A stretch of DNA of 64,000 nt from positions 207,143 through 271,142 of the forward strand of contig JAGWJP010000001.1 in the NCBI GenBank assembly GCA_028865725.1, written 5' to 3'. Every line of letters begins with the position of its first letter. The first letter of the stretch is position 1. Origin of the DNA: Patescibacteria group bacterium (GTDB lineage Bacteria > Patescibacteriota > Minisyncoccia > UBA6257 > JACRHW01). This document shows positions 1,384 to 63,781 of the stretch, piece by piece. The notes under the pieces were generated by a model, which saw only the letters and a program-made list of their open reading frames with translations, had not been told where the DNA came from and made no database searches. Made by a program: the position numbers and the translations under genes.

Positions 1384-1551
1384 GGGCATACGCTAAGGTT
1401 AAGGCACAGGCTACTTCTTATGAAGTAGTTTTTATTCTGAGTGCGGGTGCTTCAAAGCCGAAGCTGCGAGGAGGGTATAAGTTTTTTGGTTTCCAAGAAT
1501 GTTCCATGTTTTATATGTTATGCCTCTCCTTTGATGACTTAGGATAAGTGC

Positions 1552-1579
1552 TTGACATTATAAATCCGTTCTGTACAAT
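1552..1579 (+). promoter_or_regulatory. sigma70-like promoter candidate for the 23S-5S rRNA operon
   Basis: TTGACA at 1552-1557 and TACAAT at 1574-1579 are separated by a 16-nt spacer. The pair lies ~410 nt upstream of the mature 23S 5' end. Confidence 0.35.
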
Positions 1580-2622
1580 AAGAGAACACGAATAATGGAT
1601 ATCAGAGCATACGAAAAAGGGTTTTGAAGAAAAGGGTTTTCAACCACTTCTTTTCAAAACCGCTCTTGTTTCCCGATGAGGCGGTTTTTAAAAATATGAC
1701 GATTGGCTATCCAGTTCTCCGACTTTGAAAGAGGGTGGAGAACTGGGAAGCGAATCAGTGACGGAGGAAGGACTGGTGTTTGAAAAGTGAACATATTTCG
1801 TAAATCGCATTTTCCCAGCTTATAAGGTGTAAACCATATAAGCGGGTTATCTCTTTTATGAGGAAGCAATTCTTCATAATAAGAAAATCAAACGATTTCC
1901 CTAAGTCCTCATGACATGCAAATGTGATGAGGCAGCGTTGAATGTAGAAAGACTCTTCCAAGTCTGTTCAACGTGTAATATCTATCTAGTTGGATACGGG
2001 TAATAGTAAGGGCACACGGTGGATGCCTAGACACTAAAAGGCGATGAAGGACGTAGCGTAGCTGCGATAAGTTTCGGGGAGGTGTGTAGCAACCTTTGAT
2101 CCGGAAATTTCCGAATGGGGCAACCCAGCACAGCAAACCTGTGTTACTTCGATATTAATAAATCGAAGGGCAAACCTGCTGAAGTGAAACATCTCAGTAA
2201 GCAGTGGAAAAGAAAAAATGTACGCGAATTTATACTGGCGTACAGGATGGCACATGTCATCGCGTCGTCAGTATAAATTCGCATTATTTCCTCAGTAGCG
2301 GCGAGCGAACAGGAAAGAGCCCAAACTTATTAGTCCTGAGTTTATCGAAGGATTGATAAGGGTTGTAGGGGAAAACACTCAATGTTTTAATTGTTCTGTA
2401 TCGGTCTTGTGCTTACAAGACTGGGAGAACAATTAGAACGTTGTAAAGAGTTACAAAATGAGTTCTTAGCTGAATCTGCCTGGAAAGCAGAGCCAAAGAG
2501 GGTGATGGCCCCGTAAGCGAAAAGAATTTCATCTCTTGTTTTTATCCCTGAGTACACCGACAAACGAAAGCGTTGGTGGAAGCATCCCACACTACAGGGA
2601 AAGGCTAAATACTTTTAGTGAT

Positions 2623-2659
<37 letters not shown>

Positions 2660-3748
2660 TAGGCCGGGAGGCCGATGAAATAGAACCTGAAACCGTGTGC
2701 TTACAAGGAATCGGAGCCCCCCACCATTTTTACTGATAGGCGTTGTTGTCTTCTTCTCTGTTGAAAAGAAGACAATAGCGTAAAATCAAAGATGCACTAT
2801 TGGTGAAAATGGTGGGGGGTGACGGTGTGCCTATTGAAGAATGAGTCAGCGAGTTATCCTGCATTGCTCGTTTAACCCCGCCCCACTTTTATGAAAAATG
2901 TTGTTGTACCAGCATTGAGTAATAGTGCATAACTGGTCTCTTTTGGTGGAGGAGATATCATGTTGTAGAAGTGGGGCGGGGGAAGGCAAAGCGAAAGCGA
3001 GTCTGAATAGGGCGTCGCATTTTCTAAGTTTATACGTTTTTGTCGCAAGACCGAACGTATAGACTTGGGATTTTGCAAGCAGTGCGGGCTAGACCCGAAG
3101 CCGGGTGAGCTTGCCGTGGCCAGGATGAAAGTCGACGAAAGTCGACTGGAGGTCCGAACCGGTTGGTTGTGCAAAACCTTCGGATGAGCTGCGGTAAGGA
3201 GTGAAAAGCTAATCGAACTCGGTAATAGCTGGTTCTCTCCGAAATAGTTCTAGGACTAGCCTTGGGACAACTACGTGTGGGGGGTAGAGCACTGGATGAA
3301 GGGTAAAGGGCTTCGGCTCGGCCGTTCAATCAAACTCCGAATACCCATACGACTATCCTGGGAGTCAGACAGTGGGGGCTAAGCTCCATAGTCAAAAGGG
3401 CAAGAACCCTGATGTTCATCTAAGGTCCCTAAGTTTTGACTAAGTGTAAAGGAAGTGACAAGCCGAAGACAGATAGGAGGTTGGCTTAGAGGTAGCCATC
3501 CTTTAAAGATTGTGTAACAACTCACTATCATATCCCTCACCTTTCGGTCGTAGATTTTTGTCAGATTAAGTTATTATTTTCTTATTTCTGATTATCAATG
3601 TACGTTCGAAAGGTGAGGGACTGGCTTGTTGCGCCGAAGATATATCGGGACTAAGTCAAATACCGAAGATAACAATTCCGTGCCTCACTTTTGTGTATAT
3701 ATGTATAAAATATAAGGAAATCTATCGAAATTAAGAAAAGGGATTTAT

Positions 3749-3885
3749 GTGGAGGTAGCTCAATTGGCAGAGCTTCAAGGAGGTGGTTCGTCATCATGCG
3801 ACGGGCAAGTGTGCGCACGCTTACCCGTAGCAGACACCTGCTAAAACCTTGAAGGTTCGAGGTTCGAATCCTCGCTTCCACACCA
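3749..3885 (+). ncRNA. tRNA-like element with genomically encoded CCA, embedded in the helix-45 intervening sequence of the 23S rRNA
   Basis: The acceptor stem is GTGGAGG/CTTCCAC with one G-U pair. U8 and A9 are present. The D-arm is GCTC-AATTGGCA-GAGC. The T-arm is CGAGG-TTCGAAT-CCTCG. Discriminator A and CCA follow. The anticodon-arm position (TCAAG...CTTGA) carries a ~68-nt structured insertion (AGGTG...CACCT, ACGGGCAAG...CTTACCCGT), so no normal anticodon loop exists. Confidence 0.5.
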
Positions 3886-5234
3886 GGGAAGCAGCGTCTT
3901 CCCTCCCTTTTCTTGGTTTTGATAGTGAAAATATATCCATAAAAGCGAGGCACGGTCTGGTAGGAGAGCATTCCAAGGGCGTTGAAGGTCAATCCGCGAG
4001 GAAGACTGGAGCGCTTGGAAGAGAGAATGCTGACATGAGTAACCGCAAGCACGATGAGAATTCGTGCCCCCGCAAATCCAAGGTTTCCGTGGCAATGGAA
4101 GTCAGCCACGGGTTAGGCGGCCCTAAGGCGATGGCGAAAGCCGCAGCTAATGGACAGCTGGTTAATATTCCAGCCCTCCGACATAACGTTCGATGGGGTG
4201 ACGAAAGAAATAAATGGGAGGGGATCAATGGTTATTCCCTCATTTGAGCTGAGAATGGTGTATTAGGAAAATCCGGTACACTATCTTTAATGATGGCATT
4301 CGGGCTTCGATGAAAGCGGGGATTATATTCTCGCGATTCCCGTGAAGAGCTTTCCAAGAAAACCCTCTAAGAATTAAGGTATGGCGGACCCGTACTGTAA
4401 ACCGACACAGGTGGATGAGGCGAGTAGCCTCAGGGGAACGGGTGATTTCTCGTTAAGGAACTCGGCAAAAAAGCGACCGTAACTTCGGGATAAGGTCTGG
4501 CTCACGCAAGTGAGCCCGCAGCTAAAGTTTCTCTGGCGACTGTTTACCAAAAACACAGCTCCCTGCTAACTCGTAAGAGGATGTATAGGGGGTGACGCCT
4601 GACCAATGCGAGAAGGTTAACGGTGGCGGTGTGTGCAGCACTTAGTTTGTAAGTAAGTAACGCTTATCAATTAAGTGCTGTGCATGCTAACTGCCCGAAG
4701 CCCTCGTCAATGTCGGCGATAACTATAATCGTCCAAAGGTAGCGCAACTCCTTGTCGGGTAAGTTCCGACGTGCATGAATGGCGTAACGACTGGAGAACT
4801 GTCTCAACGAGAAGCCCGGTGAAAGTGCGACACCAGCGAAGACGCTGGTACCCTATAGCGGGACGAAAAGACCCCGGGAGCTTTACTGTAGCTTGATATT
4901 GGGTTTACGTTCTAATTACGTAGCGTAGTGGGGAGAGGTTGAAGGTTTGATTTCGGTTGGACTGGACTCGTCAATGAAACACCCATTTTTTAGAATGTAT
5001 ATCCTAACCTTTGCGGAAAAACCGCAGGGGGACAGTGTCTGGTGGGCAGTTTTCGTGGGGCGCGATCCTCCCAAAGAGTAACGGAGGAGTTTATCAAGGT
5101 CAGCTTAGCCTGGATGGAAATCAGGCTGGACGTGTAAAGGCACAAGCTGGCTTAACGGCAAGGCTTACAAGCCGCGCCGATGCGAAAGCAGAACTTAATG
5201 ACCCGATGGCACTTTGTAGAAAGGCCTGAGACAT

Positions 5235-5270
<36 letters not shown>

Positions 5271-5401
5271 GGTCCGAGCGTCCCTAGCGACGACCAGGTT
5301 CGGCACCTCGATGTCGGCTCATCTTATCCTGGGACTGAAGAAGGCCCCAAGGGTTTGGCTGTTCGCCAATTAAAAAGATACGCGAGCTGGGTTCAAACCG
5401 T

Positions 5402-5850
5402 TAAGAGACGGACGTTATGAACATGAATCATATCGCTCGGTTTTTTAACAGTTTGAACCCCGAGGAAAAGACATGAGTCACGGCGGCATCTAAACATTTG
5501 TTTAGTGTAAAGTTAACTTATATCGGTAGAATCCACTCATCAATGGACAATACCGAGGGAACAATGCAAAACTCAAAATGCAAAATTATGAAGATATGAA
5601 AATGTGCATTTTCATATCTTCATTTTAAACTTTGAGATTTACTTTTTACATTTAAGTATCATGAAATGACACGATTGGCCCGTAGAGACTACACGTTAAC
5701 TATTCCTAAATAGAAAGACTCGAACTTTTAAGGGAAAGTTCGTTCGATCTTAAAGATTTAGGAAGAAAGATATAGTCCAATACACTTAGTAATAAGTGAA
5801 AACAACCACTGAGCTTTTATTCTTACGAGAGTTGAAGTGAAGTAATATGC
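5402..5850 (+). other. ~450-nt ORF-less insertion in 23S domain V, a candidate group I intron or large intervening sequence
   Basis: The conserved sequence GGGTTCAAACCGT ... GTGAGACAGGTTGGTCTCTATCTGC corresponds to E. coli GGGUUUAGAACGUCGUGAGACAGUUCGGUCCCUAUC at ~2586-2615. It is split by ~450 nt of AT-rich structured sequence containing a perfect 16-bp hairpin, GAAGATATGAAAATGTGCATTTTCATATCTTC. No ORF longer than 60 aa is present. Confidence 0.35.
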
Positions 5851-35910: not shown

Positions 35911-36650
35911 TTATAGTTTTTGTTTATCTATTTGCGGCCGATCAGCAATATATCGCAAGATCGGATTCGTTGATACTTTCCAAGCGCGAGACTTGCGACG
36001 AAAGAGAATCACGAATTGAGCAAATAATATATAACCGACTGTAACACCAATCATATTGAATATTACGTCGTTGATGTCGGCAATTCGGAATGTTGTACTT
36101 GATATGAACCCCGTTATGAACTGCAAAAGCTCGATAGTGATGCTTAAATAGAGACCTGTCATAACTACCTTCTTGAAGCGAAAATTGGTAATAAACGGCA
36201 GTCCGAAGCCGAATGGCATCATCATGAGGATGTTGAGAAGTGTAGTCTTCACATCCACGAGCCTGAGCGTGGCGAGTGGAATAAGATTCACGGTTCTTCC
36301 AGCCCCTACACCCCTCAGCATTAGATCTGGCAAAAAATGTTTTAGGAGAAGTAAGGATTGAAATTGAATTAGCGTAATATCTATAACCTTATAAAGGTAG
36401 ATGTAGAAAATAGTAAAGAAAAGCAAATACACAATATTTTTTTGTTTCTTCAACTTAAGGAATAGGATAATGCCTAGCCAAATCAAGCCAACAAGAACTA
36501 TTGTTACCGTGTTTATTGTGCCGCTTATTTTCTTATAATTAGCCTCATTATTTAATACGATAGTAGGAGTTGTTTGACCTGTCCCAGTTACTTCCGTTGC
36601 AGCTTCTTGGGATCCACCGCAAACTACCACAGTATCTGCGACAAAGCTGC
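35911..36650 (-). CDS. VanZ-like family membrane protein (start uncertain)
   Basis: NLIPLATL...ITIELLQFITG...DINDVIFNMIGVTVGY. The six-frame ORF runs through the tRNA-Ser at 36735-36824, so the true start must be downstream of it. No clear ATG/RBS is visible, so the 5' coordinate is approximate. Confidence 0.45.
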
Positions 36651-36734
36651 CATCAGAATTAGGCCCACCGACGAGCGTTATCTCCTCTCCGGCTTTTAAA
36701 TCGGATATGGGAATGTTCCCACTTGAAGTTTCTA

Positions 36735-36824
36735 TTGGCGGAAAGGGAGGGATTCGAACCCTCGGTGCCATTGCTGACACACAGTCTTTCCAGGACTGCC
36801 GTTTCAACCACTCACGCACCTTTC
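36735..36824 (-). tRNA. tRNA-Ser (anticodon GGA), type II with long variable arm, CCA encoded
   Basis: Reverse complement reads GGAAAGG-TG-CGT-GAGTGGTTGAA-ACG-G-CAGTC-CTGGAAA-GACTG-(variable arm GTGTCAGCAATGGCAC)-GAGGG-TTCGAAT-CCCTC-CCTTTCC-G-CCA. Confidence 0.85.
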
Positions 36825-36961
36825 CTTTTATGGTGTACTATAAAATAGTACCAGCCTTTCAGTCCGTTTGGCAACTTTTGCTCTCAAACATTGAGGTTGC
36901 ATAACATTGTTATTTTCGGTAAAACTAGAGATGCAAAAGATATTAGTGAGAGTAGACTAGA

Positions 36962-37009
36962 GATCTGTGTCCGCCTGTAGCTCAGTCCGGTTAGAGCACG
37001 GAGCTTATA
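36962..37009 (+). pseudogene. tRNA-Ile(UAU) 5'-half duplicate (leader + acceptor/D-arm/anticodon-stem 5' side)
   Basis: ATCTGTGTCCGCCTGTAGCTCAGTCCGGTTAGAGCACGGAGCTTATA is identical to the 5' part of the complete gene at 37032-37079, then diverges. Confidence 0.6.
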
Positions 37010-37040
37010 ACGACAAGTGAGGATCATTAAAAATCTGTGT

Positions 37041-37115
37041 CCGCCTGTAGCTCAGTCCGGTTAGAGCACGGAGCTTATATCTCCGCGGTCCCAGGTTCGA
37101 ATCCTGGCGGGCGGA
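37041..37115 (+). tRNA. tRNA-Ile (anticodon UAU), no CCA encoded
   Basis: CCGCCTG-TA-GCTC-AGTCCGGTTA-GAGC-A-CGGAG-CTTATAT-CTCCG-CGGTC-CCAGG-TTCGAAT-CCTGG-CGGGCGG-A. U8 and A9 are present. The anticodon loop has U33-UAU-A37. Confidence 0.7.
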
Positions 37116-37159
37116 CACATCTTTTTAAGTGAAACGAACACAGGCGTTATATCGAAGAT

Positions 37160-37207
37160 ATATCTTCGCGGTCCCAGGTTCGAATCCTGGCGGGCGGACA
37201 CAGATCT
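37160..37207 (+). pseudogene. tRNA-Ile(UAU) 3'-half duplicate (anticodon-stem 3' side through trailer)
   Basis: TATCTTCGCGGTCCCAGGTTCGAATCCTGGCGGGCGGACACA matches the 3' half of the complete gene with one substitution. The trailer ACAGATCT is the inverted complement of the leader AGATCTGT at 36961. Confidence 0.6.
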
Positions 37208-37382
37208 GTAAGTATGGTTGAATGCAGATAATCATTGTGTTTTGTACGGCAGTTATCGCATCTGATGCAATTGCAGTATAAGCAAGAGAAGTGAGACAAA
37301 AACGCAACGATGTGCACCTGTGTCATTTACAAAATACATCAGATACGGCATATATTATTTAGGAGAGGAGGTGAGATGAACG

Positions 37383-58489: not shown

Positions 58490-58560
58490 TGCCGGATCGT
58501 CTAATGGTAGGACATCGCCCTCTGGAGGCGAGTATCTTGGTTCGAATCCAGGTCCGGCAG
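58490..58560 (+). tRNA. tRNA-Gln (anticodon CUG)
   Basis: TGCCGGA-TC-GTCT-AATGGTA-GGAC-A-TCGCC-CTCTGGA-GGCGA-GTAT-CTTGG-TTCGAAT-CCAGG-TCCGGCA-G. The U1-A72 pair and G73 are typical of bacterial tRNA-Gln. Confidence 0.8.
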
Positions 58561-60123
58561 CAATCGTGGATTTTTGGCATAGAGATGCTCTAAATCCTCT
58601 TGTTTTATCTGCTTTTTTCGAGGTTCTAACCGCTTGTGAATCTCTGCAACCTCTTTTGAGACTATTTCCATCGGCACAAGCGAATTTTCTAGGTCAATAC
58701 TGATGATCCTATCTTTTAGTATGAGGTTCTGACCGAGCGTTGAGAAAATGCGTTTTCTGATCTCCAAAGAGCCATTATTAAACTTGTCGGCGGCGTCTCT
58801 TACGAACTGAAGCATTTCATCGGCTGTTTTGATTTGTTTATCTACTCGGTCGCCCGTATCGTTGAATAGCTCCTCAAGACGTGCCTTATCACGCTTCAAT
58901 GGCGACATTTTGACGTTGAAGTCGGTATCGTCGATAAGTCCGCTTGCTCGCATATCAATAAGCCCGTCTATCTTTTTGAGACAGAGCTTGTATTCTTTCT
59001 GCTGGACGTCGATCACGGCGTTTCTCCCGACTGCTTCTTTGGCGAACTCATTCCTAAACCACTTGAGACCGAAAGCGTGGAACTCGGGCGGTATCCTCAA
59101 GCTCATGATTTTGCCTACGATCTGTTTTTCGAGTTTTTTCGTCTCAACGCATTTCTGTGAGCATTTCGGATTGATGCGTTTGGTGCAGTGATAATAGATA
59201 TAGTGATGTACCTTGCCGTTCTGCTGCCTTTTGAATTTTTCTTCGGCGGTAATTGATCCGTTGCATTCTCCGCATCGCATCATTCCCGTGAAATCAAAGA
59301 TATGGCTTTTCGGTCTCGGTTTTCCTTTTTTGCCCAGCAAGAATTGTATGCGATCGTATTCTTCCTCGGTGATCATCGGTTTATGGACGCCTTTGACCCA
59401 ATTTCCGCTACCCATCGGATACTCAAACATGCCGTAGTAAAACGGTCTGCTGAATATGTTGTACATCGTTGATCTTCCAAGTTTCTTGCCTTGTCGGGTT
59501 TTATAACCCCATTCTTCGTTTGCGATACGGAGAATATCAATAGGCGTGTAAGTTCCTGTAAGCATGAGATCGAACATGCGGCGTACTGTATCAAAGCGTT
59601 CAGGATCGGGCAGAATGGTCTTTGTGCCACGTTCCGCATATTTATCATTCATGTATCCCTGCGATGCAGGGGCGGGCATTACGCCCTTATCAACCTTGGC
59701 TCGCAGTCCACGCTTGGTGTTCTGGCTCAAGTCTCGCAGGAATTGGTTCGCCATGCCGAATTCAACGCTCATCATAAGAACATTGTCGGTTGGGTAATAG
59801 CTCTTCTCAAACGTTCGTATATGCTGAATGACGCCTTGCTGGAGCATCCAGTTGATATTGCCGCCGTCCACGGGATTGCGTGCCAGACGGTCTAGTTTCC
59901 AGCACAAGATGCCTTGAGCCTCGCCTTTGTAGATTCGCTCTATCATTTCGTTGAATACGGCTCTTCCTGGAGCTTTGGCGGACTTGGATTCAAAGAGTGG
60001 TGTTACGATCTCCAGCCCCTCTCGTTTTGCCAATCGTTCAAGCTCTGCAATCTGGGATTCGATTGAGGCGACTTGGCGATCTTCCGATTCGGACGATTTT
60101 CGAGCATAGAGGAAGTATTTCAT
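58501..60123 (-). CDS. large serine recombinase (resolvase/invertase-type integrase); C-terminal coding overlaps tRNA-Gln antisense
   Basis: MKYFLYARKSSESEDRQ... carries the catalytic Ser within YxRxS. ...GILCWKLDRLARNP... is also present, plus a large C-terminal recombinase domain. The ORF has no stop until 58501, so the last 19 codons are the reverse complement of the tRNA-Gln 3' half. Confidence 0.8.
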   Translation of the reverse strand: MKYFLYARKSSESEDRQVASIESQIAELERLAKREGLEIVTPLFESKSAKAPGRAVFNEMIERIYKGEAQGILCWKLDRLARNPVDGGNINWMLQQGVIQHIRTFEKSYYPTDNVLMMSVEFGMANQFLRDLSQNTKRGLRAKVDKGVMPAPASQGYMNDKYAERGTKTILPDPERFDTVRRMFDLMLTGTYTPIDILRIANEEWGYKTRQGKKLGRSTMYNIFSRPFYYGMFEYPMGSGNWVKGVHKPMITEEEYDRIQFLLGKKGKPRPKSHIFDFTGMMRCGECNGSITAEEKFKRQQNGKVHHYIYYHCTKRINPKCSQKCVETKKLEKQIVGKIMSLRIPPEFHAFGLKWFRNEFAKEAVGRNAVIDVQQKEYKLCLKKIDGLIDMRASGLIDDTDFNVKMSPLKRDKARLEELFNDTGDRVDKQIKTADEMLQFVRDAADKFNNGSLEIRKRIFSTLGQNLILKDRIISIDLENSLVPMEIVSKEVAEIHKRLEPRKKQIKQEDLEHLYAKNPRLLPDLDSNQDTRLQRAMSYH

Positions 60124-60302
60124 TTTTTGAGTGTAGTCTTTCATAAACTTAAACGGACGGTTCTGGCTATCCAATTCGCTTGCTCCAGAGGAGTAGCCAT
60201 ACTGGCAGAACCGCCCGTTTAGGGAGAGTATGGCTCAACAAAAAACCTCTGGGATTGAAAACGAATTTGGATAGCATATTGATTATACTATATTTTTGAA
60301 GA

Positions 60303-61526
60303 TTAGTGAAAGTCGATGCTTGGGTTGTAAGTTGGTTTTGGTTTCCAATTATGTCTCTCGAATTTATCAAGTGCTATCTGTATGTCGCTTACTATGTGAT
60401 CTGTGGGCAGATCTTTGAGATTTTCCAACGTGCGATCCAGTTTTACATGCATACGATTCCAACTTTTTGGTGTCCAATTTTTTTCAATTTTGTCTCTTAT
60501 TTTGCGAGCACCGCATTTGTTTACAAGGGTATACAGTGCAAAATCCTGCAAAAGCTTATTCAAAGAGTGGGCTTTTCTTTTGCCAGTGGAAATATAACTG
60601 TTAATCATTGCATCGAAGATTTCTTCTGGGGGTCTATCCATTTTTAAGGCGAGCTGACTTGCTGATCCGCCAATGATCTCTTGCCAGCTTTGGAGAACTG
60701 CCTTTTTGCACAATTCTTGATCAAAGATTTCCTCGAAGACAATGCCGCTTATTTTTCTGCTCAAGGCTTTTGTGAGGAAGGCATTAAGACTTGGCTGTTT
60801 TGTTAATCTTACCTCGAAACGCAGAATGTCCTGTTCAAAATCACTGGTGCGGATCAGTTCCTTTTCGAATTTAAGCTTATCCTTTTCTACAGCCCTATTT
60901 TTTGGTTCTTCCATTTCTTTGAGTTTATCGTAGAAAATGATGTTGTAAGACGATGCGTAAAAATACAACGCCTGACCCCCGTTTTCATAATGACGCATAT
61001 TGATGGCTTTGCTTTTTCCTACATCCGCTTTATAAAGCTCTGCAATTGCGTCTTGAGCCGTTAACGGGCTTGGAAGCGGGATATTCTTACCAAAGTGAGC
61101 CTCTATGACCATTGCCTTGCGTAGCGTGGTTTCAGTGGCTTCTATTCCCATAAATTGAAGTTGAGTCTTTAGAGTGCTGACAACTCTGCTAAAATCGTCG
61201 TTGGAAAGCTCTTGAAGGCTTTGCCTAAAAATCAATTTTGGGATCGAGAAACGAATGTGTAGAAAATAAATAGGCATATTATTTTCAAAGCGTTGGTATC
61301 CCGTAAGCGAGGGTTTGTAATTATTAACTTTTTTGTCCTCGGAGGTCATATTCTGCTTATATTTTTCATACTTGTTATGTCCATAAGCGAAATTTGAATT
61401 ATAGTTTTGGGGAGAAAACGCAGGCGTGAAGAAGCTCGGATTCGTTACCCTAAAGTCTGGATATTTTAGTTTTAGGGTTACCGTATCGAGCATGTAATCC
61501 TTCGCTTTGTTGTTTGGAGTATTCAT
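60303..61526 (-). CDS. hypothetical protein of the integrated element (possible replication-initiation/relaxase-type protein)
   Basis: 407 aa. It lies between the recombinase and the R-M genes. No catalytic motif can be assigned with confidence. Confidence 0.45.
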   Translation of the reverse strand: MNTPNNKAKDYMLDTVTLKLKYPDFRVTNPSFFTPAFSPQNYNSNFAYGHNKYEKYKQNMTSEDKKVNNYKPSLTGYQRFENNMPIYFLHIRFSIPKLIFRQSLQELSNDDFSRVVSTLKTQLQFMGIEATETTLRKAMVIEAHFGKNIPLPSPLTAQDAIAELYKADVGKSKAINMRHYENGGQALYFYASSYNIIFYDKLKEMEEPKNRAVEKDKLKFEKELIRTSDFEQDILRFEVRLTKQPSLNAFLTKALSRKISGIVFEEIFDQELCKKAVLQSWQEIIGGSASQLALKMDRPPEEIFDAMINSYISTGKRKAHSLNKLLQDFALYTLVNKCGARKIRDKIEKNWTPKSWNRMHVKLDRTLENLKDLPTDHIVSDIQIALDKFERHNWKPKPTYNPSIDFH

Positions 61527-62116: not shown

Positions 62117-62704
62117 TTATTTGGTTTCGAAATGAATGACACCAGAATCATCAATTTTGAAGTAATTCAGTCTTCCGCAGGAACGGCAACGCCAGTATTT
62201 TTCTTCCTCAAATTTAACCATCAATGCTCTTATTTCCTCGTAAGAAATAAGCCCCTTTCCTTGAAAACGACCGCATTGACACACCCATTTGGGATTATTC
62301 GAATGAGCAAGAAATTTATTTATGGAATCTGGTATTTTGAAAACCTCGTCTTCTATTTCACGCAATAAAGCGGAAAGATATTCTCGATCTTTTAATTTAT
62401 AATCGGCTGGATAGCTATAAGCTTGCGAAAATACAGGGAGATCGTTTTCGTCAGTTTCAACTTCTACGTCCTCTATGTTGATTAACTCTATCGCTCCAGT
62501 TTTTTCTTCCACGTATTTTGCTAATTCCCAATTCCACGGAGCCGCACGTAACAAATCCCCATGTTCATCCAATAGCATTCTTTTTAATATACGTATCACT
62601 TCTTGGGATGACATCTTTGTCTTTTCCTGTGCGTATTTTAATAAGCTGTGAGCCTCCCTTTGTGGGTTGGGTTTGATTATCTTGCGTTTTGCGTAAATGG
62701 ACAT
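62117..62704 (-). CDS. hypothetical protein with C-terminal Cys4 zinc ribbon (CQCG...CRSCG)
   Basis: 195 aa. Transcribed divergently from the C5 methyltransferase. Confidence 0.45.
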   Translation of the reverse strand: MSIYAKRKIIKPNPQREAHSLLKYAQEKTKMSSQEVIRILKRMLLDEHGDLLRAAPWNWELAKYVEEKTGAIELINIEDVEVETDENDLPVFSQAYSYPADYKLKDREYLSALLREIEDEVFKIPDSINKFLAHSNNPKWVCQCGRFQGKGLISYEEIRALMVKFEEEKYWRCRSCGRLNYFKIDDSGVIHFETK

Positions 62705-62791
62705 AATGTTTTACAGAAATGCTTTTTTGGGTGTATTCTCAATAGTAAGCATAGTTACGTCAAAAATCAATTTGAGGAGTACTCCAAAAAA

Positions 62792-63781
62792 ATGACAAAA
62801 AAGAAATCGCCTCTCAAAAAGTACACTGTTACTTCTTTATTTTCGGGATGCGGGGGTCTTGATTTGGGTTTCAAGGGAGGTTTTTCCGTTTTGGGCAAAA
62901 AATATGGACAACGGTCTTTTGATATATTGTGGGCGAACGATTTTGATGAAAATGCTTGTTTCACTTTCTCAAAAAACTTTGGAGATCCAATAGTTTGCGG
63001 TGATATTGTCCAAATTCTTAGAGGAAATTATCCAGAATCTTCGAATCCAAAGATTCCAGAAAAGGCTGATGTGATTCTTGGTGGTTTTCCTTGTCAGGAT
63101 TTTAGTTTGGCTGGCAAACGAAAAGGATTTGCTGGGGGACGTGGCTTACTTTATCAAAGCATGGTTGAGGTGGTTAAAAGATTGCGACCAGCACTTTTTG
63201 TTGCCGAAAACGTAAGGGGTCTTTTAAGCATGAATAATGGGGCGGCGATAGCCACGATCATTAAAGATTTTTCTGATCTAGGGTATAACGTTGTTTATAA
63301 ACTACATCACGCTGCTGATTTCGGCGTGCCACAAAATAGGGAGCGTGTAATCATTGTTGGTACCGACAAAAAAAGGAATCTTCCAGCCTTCGAATATCCA
63401 AAATCAACTCATGATAACGAGGAGAGGGTAACGCTTTTAGACGCCATTGGGGATCTTGAAAACAAAAAAGAGGGCGAGTTGCCCAATCATTATTGGTCTA
63501 AAGCAAAAATGTTTCCTGGTACTCAAGGCAATACTATAACCAGCCCCGACAAGATTGGTCCGACTATGCGAGCGGAACACCATGGTAATATTGAATGGCA
63601 TTGGAATAAAAAAAGGAGGTTGTCCGCAAGAGAGGCGGCGAGAATACAAACATTTCCAGACGATTTTATTTTTTACCCCTCAACATCGAGTGCTTATAAG
63701 CAAATCGGAAATGCTGTTCCCCCTGTACTTGGTTGGCATATTGCTACAGCAGTAGAAAAATTTCTAAATAAATATCTCTAG
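62792..63781 (+). CDS. DNA (cytosine-5)-methyltransferase
   Basis: Motif I LFSGCGGLDLGF, motif IV GGFPCQDFSLAGKR, motif VI ENV, and motif X at the C-terminus. GAGGAG RBS. Confidence 0.9.
   Translation: MTKKKSPLKKYTVTSLFSGCGGLDLGFKGGFSVLGKKYGQRSFDILWANDFDENACFTFSKNFGDPIVCGDIVQILRGNYPESSNPKIPEKADVILGGFPCQDFSLAGKRKGFAGGRGLLYQSMVEVVKRLRPALFVAENVRGLLSMNNGAAIATIIKDFSDLGYNVVYKLHHAADFGVPQNRERVIIVGTDKKRNLPAFEYPKSTHDNEERVTLLDAIGDLENKKEGELPNHYWSKAKMFPGTQGNTITSPDKIGPTMRAEHHGNIEWHWNKKRRLSAREAARIQTFPDDFIFYPSTSSAYKQIGNAVPPVLGWHIATAVEKFLNKYL

Follow-up and report, generated by a model that had tools for sequence, protein, structure and literature searches.

Sequences inserted in tRNA genes are known from integrative elements that target these genes and bring a replacement segment with them, as in the tRNA-Thr case of Caldiarchaeum (PMC3293823), and from the disrupted tRNAs of archaea and algae, which include bulge-helix-bulge introns at 37/38, split genes (Nanoarchaeum, Caldivirga) and permuted genes (Cyanidioschyzon) (PMC3978253). 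How tRNA genes came to be interrupted, and what part mobile elements play, is an old open question that has been argued mostly from archaea. The locus described here is bacterial. It lies in a 64-kb stretch of contig JAGWJP010000001.1 of a Patescibacteria group bacterium (the whole stretch is hereafter called the window) in which an intact tRNA-Ile(UAU) gene is found between a 5' half and a 3' half of itself. The favoured explanation, credited with a somewhat better than even chance, is that a protein-less, hairpin-armed tRNA-Ile(UAU) cassette interrupted the resident gene at its anticodon TATA and replaced it. In Patescibacteria, dozens of such "fossil stacks" occur at this single gene, the site being filled in some close relatives and empty in others, and the order of events can be read from them. 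No description of nested tRNA genes in Patescibacteria was found in the literature searched, which by itself does not prove novelty.

Like the elements that target tRNA genes (those with integrases of phages or integrative and conjugative elements and the archaeal pNOB8 and SSV types), the cassette is specific for one tRNA gene, makes good the disrupted gene with sequence borne by the insert, leaves the displaced fragments as direct repeats and, when hits are repeated, several such fragments. It differs from them in that it has neither recombinase nor element body and measures 142 nt in all, in that it brings a whole tRNA rather than one end and displaces both halves, in its break inside the anticodon with a 4-nt TATA overlap and nested layers, and in its ends, which form a covarying hairpin with strand-specific G·A loops. 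With disrupted tRNAs it shares the break beside position 37, complementary flanks at the junction and small protein-less inserts that are possibly mobile between tRNA genes, but it is bacterial, has no bulge-helix-bulge and holds a working copy of the same tRNA, whereas the copies that it interrupts decay and are never the sole copy. Group I introns of bacterial tRNAs also sit in the anticodon loop; the cassette is too short for one and lacks the catalytic core, and no match to Intron_gpI was obtained at E <= 10 in the window locus or in a second nested locus (L034).

Other likenesses concern small mobile DNA. As in Correia, ERIC, RUP and REP/BIME elements, the unit is ca. 100-150 nt long, encodes no protein, folds end to end in a hairpin, has a short AT-rich duplication at its ends and is (presumably, for the cassette) co-transcribed with host genes; unlike these, it occupies one site per genome, as far as the 64-kb window and 750 kb of related loci show, its terminal bases vary, its mismatches are strand-specific and it carries a tRNA gene. 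As for homing introns, inteins and intron-less homing, the target is the element's own conserved gene, the host stays viable, the distribution is patchy among relatives and a spread by recombination with flanking exons is possible; however, function is restored by a spare gene and not by splicing, no endonuclease gene is known, and the spare gene recreates the target so that layers accumulate. Finally, IS200/IS605 elements with their protein-less derivatives and integron attC cassettes may share with the cassette the strand-specific hairpin with conserved mismatches, fixed tetranucleotide boundaries, single orientation and tandem unit arrays, but have separate left- and right-end hairpins where the cassette is one hairpin over the whole unit with its cargo at the tip, and no HUH transposase or integron integrase stood out among the neighbours of the cassette. 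Overall, the locus compares best with a target-restoring insertion at tRNA genes, in a new variant, and there is a substantial chance that it represents a new class of element.

The nested tRNA-Ile(UAU) locus

ARAGORN calls six tRNAs in the window, among them tRNA-Ile(UAU) at 37041-37116, which is the sole call at the nested locus and is also detected by Rfam (37041-37115/6). This gene is intact, with a cloverleaf and a 7-nt anticodon loop, and scores 66.5 bits against RF00005 (gathering score 29). An earlier note, made from the letters of the window alone, had placed it between its own 5' and 3' halves, and both programs bear this out together with two direct repeats: one of 52 nt (96% identity; 36958-37009 versus 37028-37079) covers the leader and the 5' half up to A37, the other of 55 nt (91%; 37159-37213 versus 37076-37130) covers the 3' half from T34 and the trailer, with a spacing of 70-83 nt. 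Numbered as in a tRNA, the upstream copy comprises 8 nt of leader and the positions up to A37, and the downstream copy begins at T34 and extends past the discriminator by 5-9 nt of trailer; TATA (T34-A37, i.e. the anticodon and A37) is kept in both and constitutes their overlap. Outer and inner 5' halves are identical over 47 of 47 nt, leader included, and the only difference within the tRNA part is a C-to-T change at 37166. The outer leader and trailer, already noticed as inverted complements, form an 18-nt inverted repeat (94%; 36958-36975 and 37193-37210) with a perfect 15-nt core. When 153 nt between the outer TATAs are deleted in silico, the collapsed gene is still called tRNA-Ile(tat) by ARAGORN.

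Between the split halves are a 142-nt unit (37010-37151), made of a 31-nt arm, the tRNA, a 32-nt arm and a terminal TATA, and a small hairpin (Table 1). What the earlier note listed as two spacers turned out to be the complementary arms (37010-37040 and 37116-37147) of one conserved cassette: a covariance model built from an alignment of 13 cassettes matched 37006-37151 end to end with 143.9 bits. For the 256-nt locus, the predicted fold (-111.5 kcal/mol, z = -7.5) is one cloverleaf set in the anticodon arm of another. Its order is 5' half, full gene, 3' half, while a permuted tRNA would have the 3' half upstream. The sequence X'-TATA-X that an excised circle or a tandem would be expected to have at its junction (X and X' being the outer 5 nt of the arms, see below) reads …GGCGTTATAACGAC…. 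The window locus is a two-layer, possibly three-layer, "Russian doll": a putative remnant of a 5' arm upstream of the outer copy, recognised by analogy with the arm consensus, suggests that this copy was itself once a cassette. Genes for FtsH, TsaD, a VanZ-like protein and a SET protein are its neighbours and, like all the related loci, indicate that it belongs to Patescibacteria. The window is 100% identical to a 260-kb NCBI contig (JAGWUQ010000001.1) of the metagenome-assembled genome GCA_028868355.1.

Table 1. Features of the nested tRNA-Ile(UAU) locus, with positions in the window
Feature	Position	Strand	Evidence
Possible relic of a still older 5' half (TCAGTCCGTTT versus D-loop TCAGTCCGGTT); weak, could be chance	36859..36869	+	Repeat family
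Putative older 5' arm, degenerate, lying before the outer copy; GTGAGAG at 36946-36952	36938..36961	+	Analogy with arm consensus, inference only
Outer leader (AGATCTGTG...); with 36971-36975 it makes the 15-nt perfect inverted repeat to 37193-37207 and lengthens the outer acceptor stem	36962..36970	+	Inverted repeat, locus fold
Outer displaced 5' half of tRNA-Ile(UAU), positions 1-A37, ends CTTATA, identical to inner	36971..37009	+	Direct repeat, self-comparison
Left TATA (outer T34-A37), left boundary of cassette	37006..37009	+	Start of covariance-model match; upstream copies in relatives stop at position 37
Cassette 5' arm: X (ACGAC), G·A-loop motif (AAGTGAGGA), P2 (…AAAAATCTGTGT) into acceptor stem	37010..37040	+	26-pair leader:trailer fold, alignment, covariation
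Inner intact tRNA-Ile(UAU), anticodon TAT at 37076-37078, CCA not encoded, presumed live gene	37041..37115	+	ARAGORN, RF00005
Cassette 3' arm: P2 strand (CACATCTTTTT…), G·A-loop motif (GTGAAACGAAC), X' (…GGCGT)	37116..37147	+	Fold, alignment, covariation, 143.9-bit model match
Middle TATA closing the cassette; pairs with left TATA (P1) or right TATA (small hairpin)	37148..37151	+	Sequence, covariance model
Filler TCGAAGA; with flanking TATAs gives small hairpin TATATC-GAA-GATATA (37148-37162)	37152..37158	+	Sequence; equivalents beside the 3' half in L158, L183, L162, L021, L024 and others
Outer displaced 3' half, T34 to discriminator; C-to-T at 37166 gives G·U in outer anticodon stem	37159..37198	+	Direct repeat; collapsed gene is tRNA-Ile(tat)
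Outer trailer (CACAGATCT), complements outer leader	37199..37207	+	Inverted repeat

The mini-hairpin CGAAGATATATCTTCG that had been proposed to result from the C-to-T change is indeed present at 37153-37168. That the change compensates for anything is probably a coincidence, because the hairpin with its CGAAG filler recurs in two other loci (L158 and L183) where CGAAG cannot pair with the anticodon stem, and TATATC-GAA-GATATA is the preferred pairing. Similar 6-bp mini-hairpins of the form TATATN-loop-N'ATATA are found beside the 3' half in many loci, and those of L024 and L200 covary (TATACG…CGTATA).

Recurrence in Patescibacteria, arms and layers

Related loci were collected with a 20-mer, GTTAGAGCACGGAGCTTATA, running from the D stem to A37, in GTDB species representatives and in metagenome contigs, the counts for the latter set being among the matches listed. 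The 20-mer occurs in 117 GTDB species representatives, all of them Patescibacteria, and in at least 120 metagenome contigs; the UAU anticodon, thought at first to be unusual for bacteria, is therefore not so in this lineage. No match was found in the viral contigs scanned, which argues against a phage source, and a 23-mer spanning leader and tRNA of the window had no match in the metagenome scan. When each tRNA was compared with its own flanks for self-similarity, partial copies were detected in 20 of 109 loci from GTDB and in 27 of 119 from metagenomes. The upstream copies stop at position 37 in 15 GTDB and 10 metagenome cases (at 36-38 in 21 metagenome cases), the rest ending at 34-38, and downstream copies start at position 34 in 20 and 22 cases, respectively. 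Cassettes recognised by arm pairing are found in ca. 34 of 118 GTDB and 31 of 112 metagenome loci. The nested grammar is present in ca. 20-30% of the loci having the tRNA-Ile 20-mer, with two or three layers in L006, L021, L067 and L037. As a control, 27 other tRNAs of the same loci gave four short partial copies, none of which was broken at the anticodon. The break points recur across two independent assembly samples, and none of ca. 220 complete loci has the interrupted gene only, an uninterrupted copy being always present.

Two further cases were observed outside the standard arrangement. In L099 (1207-1308, -), a tRNA-Val(UAC) with a 13-bp leader:trailer stem and an adjacent plain hairpin is flanked on both sides by degenerate tRNA-like halves, which suggests that another tRNA species is nested in the same way. 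In L008 (301-542), the outer copy around tRNA-Ile has a TAC anticodon.

Leader and trailer form 0-5 pairs in plain loci and 12-40 pairs in loci with partial copies. The most frequent unit does not vary in length (145-146 nt, both TATAs included) and occurs in at least seven lineages. It consists of TATA, a variable 5-nt segment X, a purine-rich motif, a helix leading into the acceptor stem, the tRNA, the return strand, a second motif, X' and TATA. Variants of the 5' motif are GGCAGCGAGGA and GGAGCGAG (AAGTGAGGA in the window) and those of the 3' motif are CCGAGTGAACC, CGAGCGAAC or GTGAAACGAAC. Facing each other, the two motifs make helices of 2 bp, between which tandem G·A pairs are placed (5'-CGAG-3' opposite 5'-CGAG-3'), while at the junction TATA and X fold with X' and TATA in a continuous 9-bp helix without bulges. 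In a MAFFT alignment of the 13 cassettes, 88.8% of the cells of the arm helices are paired versus 71.3 ± 1.8 in shuffled alignments, and the covariation score is 0.516 versus 0.203 shuffled and ca. 0.11 when the partner column is slid, none of 500 shuffles reaching the observed values. Searching the window and 99 loci (750 kb) with the covariance model revealed no arms outside tRNA-Ile loci. A pattern made of the two motifs alone recovers just 3 of ca. 35 known cassettes. In Rfam 15, no family corresponds to the arms or to the 65-nt hairpin described below, tRNA being the sole match at permissive thresholds for the window locus and L034. K-turn, hammerhead and bulge-helix-bulge were considered for the arm motif and dropped, as the strands do not fit.

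The arms were further analysed for strand bias in 27 non-redundant cassettes, by aligning the 5' arm with the reverse complement of the 3' arm in a strand-blind manner. On the tRNA sense strand, mismatches comprise 113 purine·purine versus 28 pyrimidine·pyrimidine oppositions (p = 3e-13) and 50 G·T versus 30 A·C (p = 0.03). Inverted repeats recognised as duplexes, such as transposon ends and att half-sites, are expected to have symmetric mismatches. The constraint therefore acts on a single strand, either the transcript or the sense DNA strand. The terminal 5 nt of the arms vary in sequence while their pairing is kept by covariation, unlike transposon ends, and the conserved parts are non-palindromic, so that the arms do not have the duplex-recognised terminal repeats of a miniature inverted-repeat element. 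A duplication of fixed length as made by such elements is present, with TATA on both sides and recurring breaks at 37 and 34; many dispersed copies are not, at least in the 64-kb window and the 99 related loci.

Comparing filled with empty sites in related genomes had been suggested as a check, and close relatives with an empty, plain site do exist. In L103, a plain tRNA follows the promoter-like TTTGCTATAAT; L061, with 91% FtsH identity to L103 and colinear with it on both sides, is nested. In this pair, the outer 5' part of L061 aligns with L103 up to ca. position 21 and the outer 3' half from position 36, ca. 219 nt including the inner tRNA being placed in between. L021 and L103 provide a further comparison. 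The three-layered L037 has a plain nearest neighbour, L026 (92% FtsH identity), and groups with 12 plain loci, the nested L063 and L101 sit among 16 plain ones, and the nested L034 pairs with the plain L009; one clade is mostly nested with the plain L103 within it. Among the loci compared, the window is closest to L073 (80% FtsH identity), whose cassette is similar. On the whole, the identity of the arms parallels that of FtsH, which indicates that cassettes were inherited vertically after their arrival. Next to the L037 nest, ca. 4 kb (about 1520-5440) that are absent from L026 encode a FIST sensor, a response regulator and a histidine kinase, that is a two-component system and no mobility genes.

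Where three layers are found (L067 and L037), alleles alternate and decay rises outward. In L067, the inner copy is intact, and the middle one is complete and of a different allele (acceptor GTGCCCA/TGGGCAC, anticodon stem CAGAG/CTCTG). The outer copy is similar to the inner allele, and a 19-nt GC-rich palindrome, CCTG(C/T)CTGCCGCAGGCAGG, is present in its D arm and again in its T arm. In several loci the outer halves differ from the inner gene and still match one another, as in L028 (GCGAGCG/CGCTCGC versus inner GGGAGTG), L063, L044 (TTCGG/CCGAA) and L084 (CCAAG/CTTGG), which indicates that they were working genes of another allele before being split. The outermost 5' half of L037 has the acceptor of the plain neighbour and its outermost 3' half that of the inner allele, as expected if the locus had recombined with a donor that was nested beforehand. 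In L061, L028, L110 and L067, stems are missing from the outer copies or insertions have been acquired. Layers were read by eye; automated peeling (deletion between 4-nt repeats followed by ARAGORN) was sound for the window and gave odd solutions elsewhere.

Units without a tRNA were also found. Many loci contain a 65-nt hairpin with the same G·A core (ATGACAAACGAGGAGCG…CGTCCGAGnGnCGTCAT), of whose 24 pairs 8 show compensatory changes, and a second type of cassette with shorter arms (TGGTAC…TACCA) adjoins this hairpin in L034, L036 and L061. The tRNA-less units may be former cassettes that have collapsed. Small palindromes colonise dead outer halves in L067 (outermost copy), L017, L021 (1781-1930), L056, L001 and L036; those of the GAATCAGCTGATTC type (L021, L056, L001, L036) often lie at or near TTCGAA of the T loop.

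Origin of the layers

According to the favoured explanation, a 142-nt cassette, composed of two complementary arms of ca. 31 nt and a whole tRNA gene with TATA at the junctions, sits in the anticodon of an older gene, the interruption inactivating the older copy and the copy borne by the cassette taking over. As the same TATA target is present in the latter, the process can start again, either inside the cassette copy, which would lead to nesting, or at the flanking TATAs, which would lead to tandem hairpin units. Displaced halves and superseded units would then decay by point mutation, by internal deletion to short hairpins and by colonisation with small palindromes. Transcription of the array as a whole presumably starts at the promoter of its outermost copy, and promoter-like sequences are found upstream of this copy in L061, L013 and L103. 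Since none of the ca. 220 complete loci has the interrupted gene alone, interruption by itself is not tolerated, which speaks against splicing and for the inner copy as the working gene.

The arms most likely act as a clamp at the RNA level and as a processing signal, judging from their sequence. Their helix, which continues the acceptor stem and contains conserved tandem G·A loops, would let the live tRNA fold apart from outer halves of identical sequence and tag it for processing enzymes to release. A risk of misfolding that such a clamp would remove is indicated by the intron mode of ARAGORN, which joins the outer 5' half to the inner 3' half. The resulting "intron-containing" tRNA-Ile is a false call (36971-37116 in the window, with a reported "intron" of 70 nt, and several other loci).

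The layers appear to have been made by insertion rather than by duplication in place, and the cassettes to have spread between lineages. The most economical way of spreading would be that incoming nested DNA recombines homologously, its tRNA halves providing the homology, and adds a layer each time the live copy is the partner. Alternatively, a structure-specific enzyme supplied in trans might act on the single-stranded hairpin; such an enzyme would be required to account for, at a minimum, the founding event and the tandem hairpin units. An overlap of 4 nt and ends that form a hairpin would be consistent with a staggered cut of 4 nt or with a mechanism based on a single-strand hairpin. A stronger claim, which is put forward tentatively and as the less probable option, is that of a new class of protein-less self-targeting cassette that moves as a single-stranded hairpin (DNA or RNA-derived) or by exon-homology recombination and kills and replaces the resident copy; successive invasions would then be stored as nested layers, the target being recreated each time.

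Several observations weigh against the favoured explanation. Neither an enzyme nor a free form or autonomous version of the cassette was found, and the neighbours of cassettes include no consistent nuclease or transposase, HUH transposases and integron integrases not standing out. Arm complementarity can be maintained by template-switch correction without selection. The history is largely vertical, and horizontal movement is argued from allele patterns and patchy distribution, with no clear tree conflict. In the window, a simple scan gave no promoter upstream on the plus strand, and the outer halves are ca. 99% identical to the inner copy, yet the older arms are badly decayed, so that gene conversion or a non-canonical older cassette has to be assumed.

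An origin in place without any mobility, by replication errors such as duplication and, at the hairpin-forming anticodon arm, slippage or template switching, followed by vertical inheritance, gene conversion and frequent loss through recombination between repeats, is thought unlikely. It would agree with the parallel between arm and FtsH identity, the restriction of cassettes to the tRNA-Ile locus, the lack of a mobility gene near this locus and, in the window, the 8 nt of leader and 5 nt of trailer that inner and outer copies have in common. It does not readily explain why outer copies often belong to a different allele with compensated stems (L028, L063, L044, L084), why alleles alternate between the layers of L067, why homologous arms with the same motifs and length occur at just 50-60% FtsH identity, or why lone nested lineages lie inside plain clades (L037 among 12, L063 and L101 among 16); moreover, genomes are normally single-copy for this gene and therefore offer no internal donor with different arms. 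Even less probable is a functional disrupted tRNA, in which the unit would serve as an intron or the outer halves, kept together by the arms after release of the inner tRNA by RNase P and RNase Z, would be joined or find use as a decoy, a spare part or a tRNA in two pieces. Among these readings is the split or permuted precursor of the earlier note, which is not supported: the junction helix is continuous, without the two 3-nt bulges and 4-bp helix of a bulge-helix-bulge, Rfam gave no ribozyme match, outer halves in relatives (L061, L028, L067, L110) lose stems and gain insertions, and an uninterrupted copy accompanies the interrupted one throughout the ca. 220 complete loci. The splicing endonuclease is not known from bacteria. 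These facts outweigh the position of the break beside position 37, which is the canonical intron site in archaea and eukaryotes, the cloverleaf-within-cloverleaf fold, the outer gene of the window that is intact once collapsed, the pairing retained by arms and tRNA-less hairpins, and the existence in the window of another tRNA (3749-3885) with a hairpin in its anticodon loop and no inner copy.

That the halves are classical integration scars, i.e. partial copies of the attL or attR type left by integrases of phages or islands whose bodies were later deleted, is very improbable. Fragments of tRNAs are the usual scars of integration (PMC3293823; PMC9897764), an element with a large serine recombinase adjoins tRNA-Gln in the window, and recombinases lie near 7 of 34 cassette loci versus 3 of 84 plain loci. 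They are, however, 0.9-6 kb away and at a different tRNA where inspected, no distant half copies flank them, no element remnants are present between the repeats, both halves are displaced symmetrically around a constant 142-nt unit, and the arms are strand-asymmetric, unlike duplex att half-sites. Instead of a one-sided partial copy at the far end of a kilobase-scale element, 5' and 3' halves here flank the unit itself. Of the scar interpretation made at first, the site-specific interruption of a tRNA gene thus remains, whereas an att duplication does not, there being no recombinase or element body between or beside the halves. An assembly artefact, by collapse or expansion of repeats, had been named as what would overturn the finding and has a negligible probability: several contigs of both samples end inside nested loci and three Logan contigs of a close relative all begin 102 nt upstream of the VanZ gene, but the repeats (47 and 44 nt) are below read length, the same break points were recovered from both samples, the arrangement occurs with diverged sequence in dozens of assemblies from various studies and assemblers, and substitutions and covarying arms set the layers apart.

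Should the cassette prove mobile, it would be a minimal selfish element that pays with a spare copy of the essential gene it destroys, and a self-targeting class, if real, would be the bacterial equivalent of what has been proposed to give rise to tRNA introns and split genes. If it is not mobile, the G·A-rich clamp would be an undescribed processing or folding signal for a tRNA in a long precursor. In practical terms, nested loci seem to break assemblies and will be mislabelled as intron-containing genes in automated annotation by tRNA finders in intron mode.

Recombinases and other features of the window

The integrase-bearing element announced at tRNA-Gln was confirmed as a large serine recombinase open reading frame (ORF) at 58501-60174 (-), with Resolvase, Recombinase and Zn-ribbon domains, whose 3' end overlaps tRNA-Gln (58490-58561). 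It is the only recombinase in the window and is located 21 kb off, at another tRNA; no ORF within ±2 kb of the nested locus has a recombinase domain, and mobility domains are absent from the neighbours. Next to it, an ORF at 60303-61526 (-) has a weak match to the rolling-circle (filamentous-phage) replication protein G2P (E = 3e-4, marginally under the cut-off); a C-5 cytosine methylase is encoded nearby at 62648-63781 (+). The region is probably an integrated element; no partial copy of tRNA-Gln was found inside the 64-kb window.

Within 8 kb, large serine recombinase genes constitute the sole neighbour family enriched at cassette loci (L013, L064, L073, L075, L084, L092 and L101, as compared with the plain L026, L035 and L113). 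Those inspected (L092 and the window) adjoin a different tRNA; the gene of L092 terminates within one that is 0.8 kb away from the nest. The serine recombinase was rejected as the cause of the cassettes on account of the distances, the other tRNAs and the absence of half copies nearby, and the association may only be a mark of tRNA-rich integration hot spots.

Contigs starting or ending inside the tRNA-Ile locus include L027, L072, L077, L079, L085, L086, L093, L111, L174 and others. The relative whose VanZ-like protein is 93% identical is represented by the three Logan contigs mentioned above (L120-L122) only, and the next relative is not syntenic. Short-k assemblies seem to be broken by the nested repeats.

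The second odd tRNA of the window (3749-3885, +) has exons scoring 48.4 bits for tRNA in Rfam and an encoded CCA. A hairpin of 61-68 nt is inserted in its anticodon loop and, in intron mode, ARAGORN reports it as Phe(aaa) with an intron at 31/32. It has no inner replacement copy, and the insert has no second copy in the window or in any fetched locus.

Finally, FtsH directly precedes tRNA-Ile in many relatives and is 1.9 kb off and convergent in the window. The VanZ-like ORF (35911-36819, -) is 286-302 aa long versus ca. 340-350 aa in 120 homologues, and its longest reading frame enters tRNA-Ser (36736-36825, -); the 5' end of this gene may have been replaced during a rearrangement of this tRNA region.

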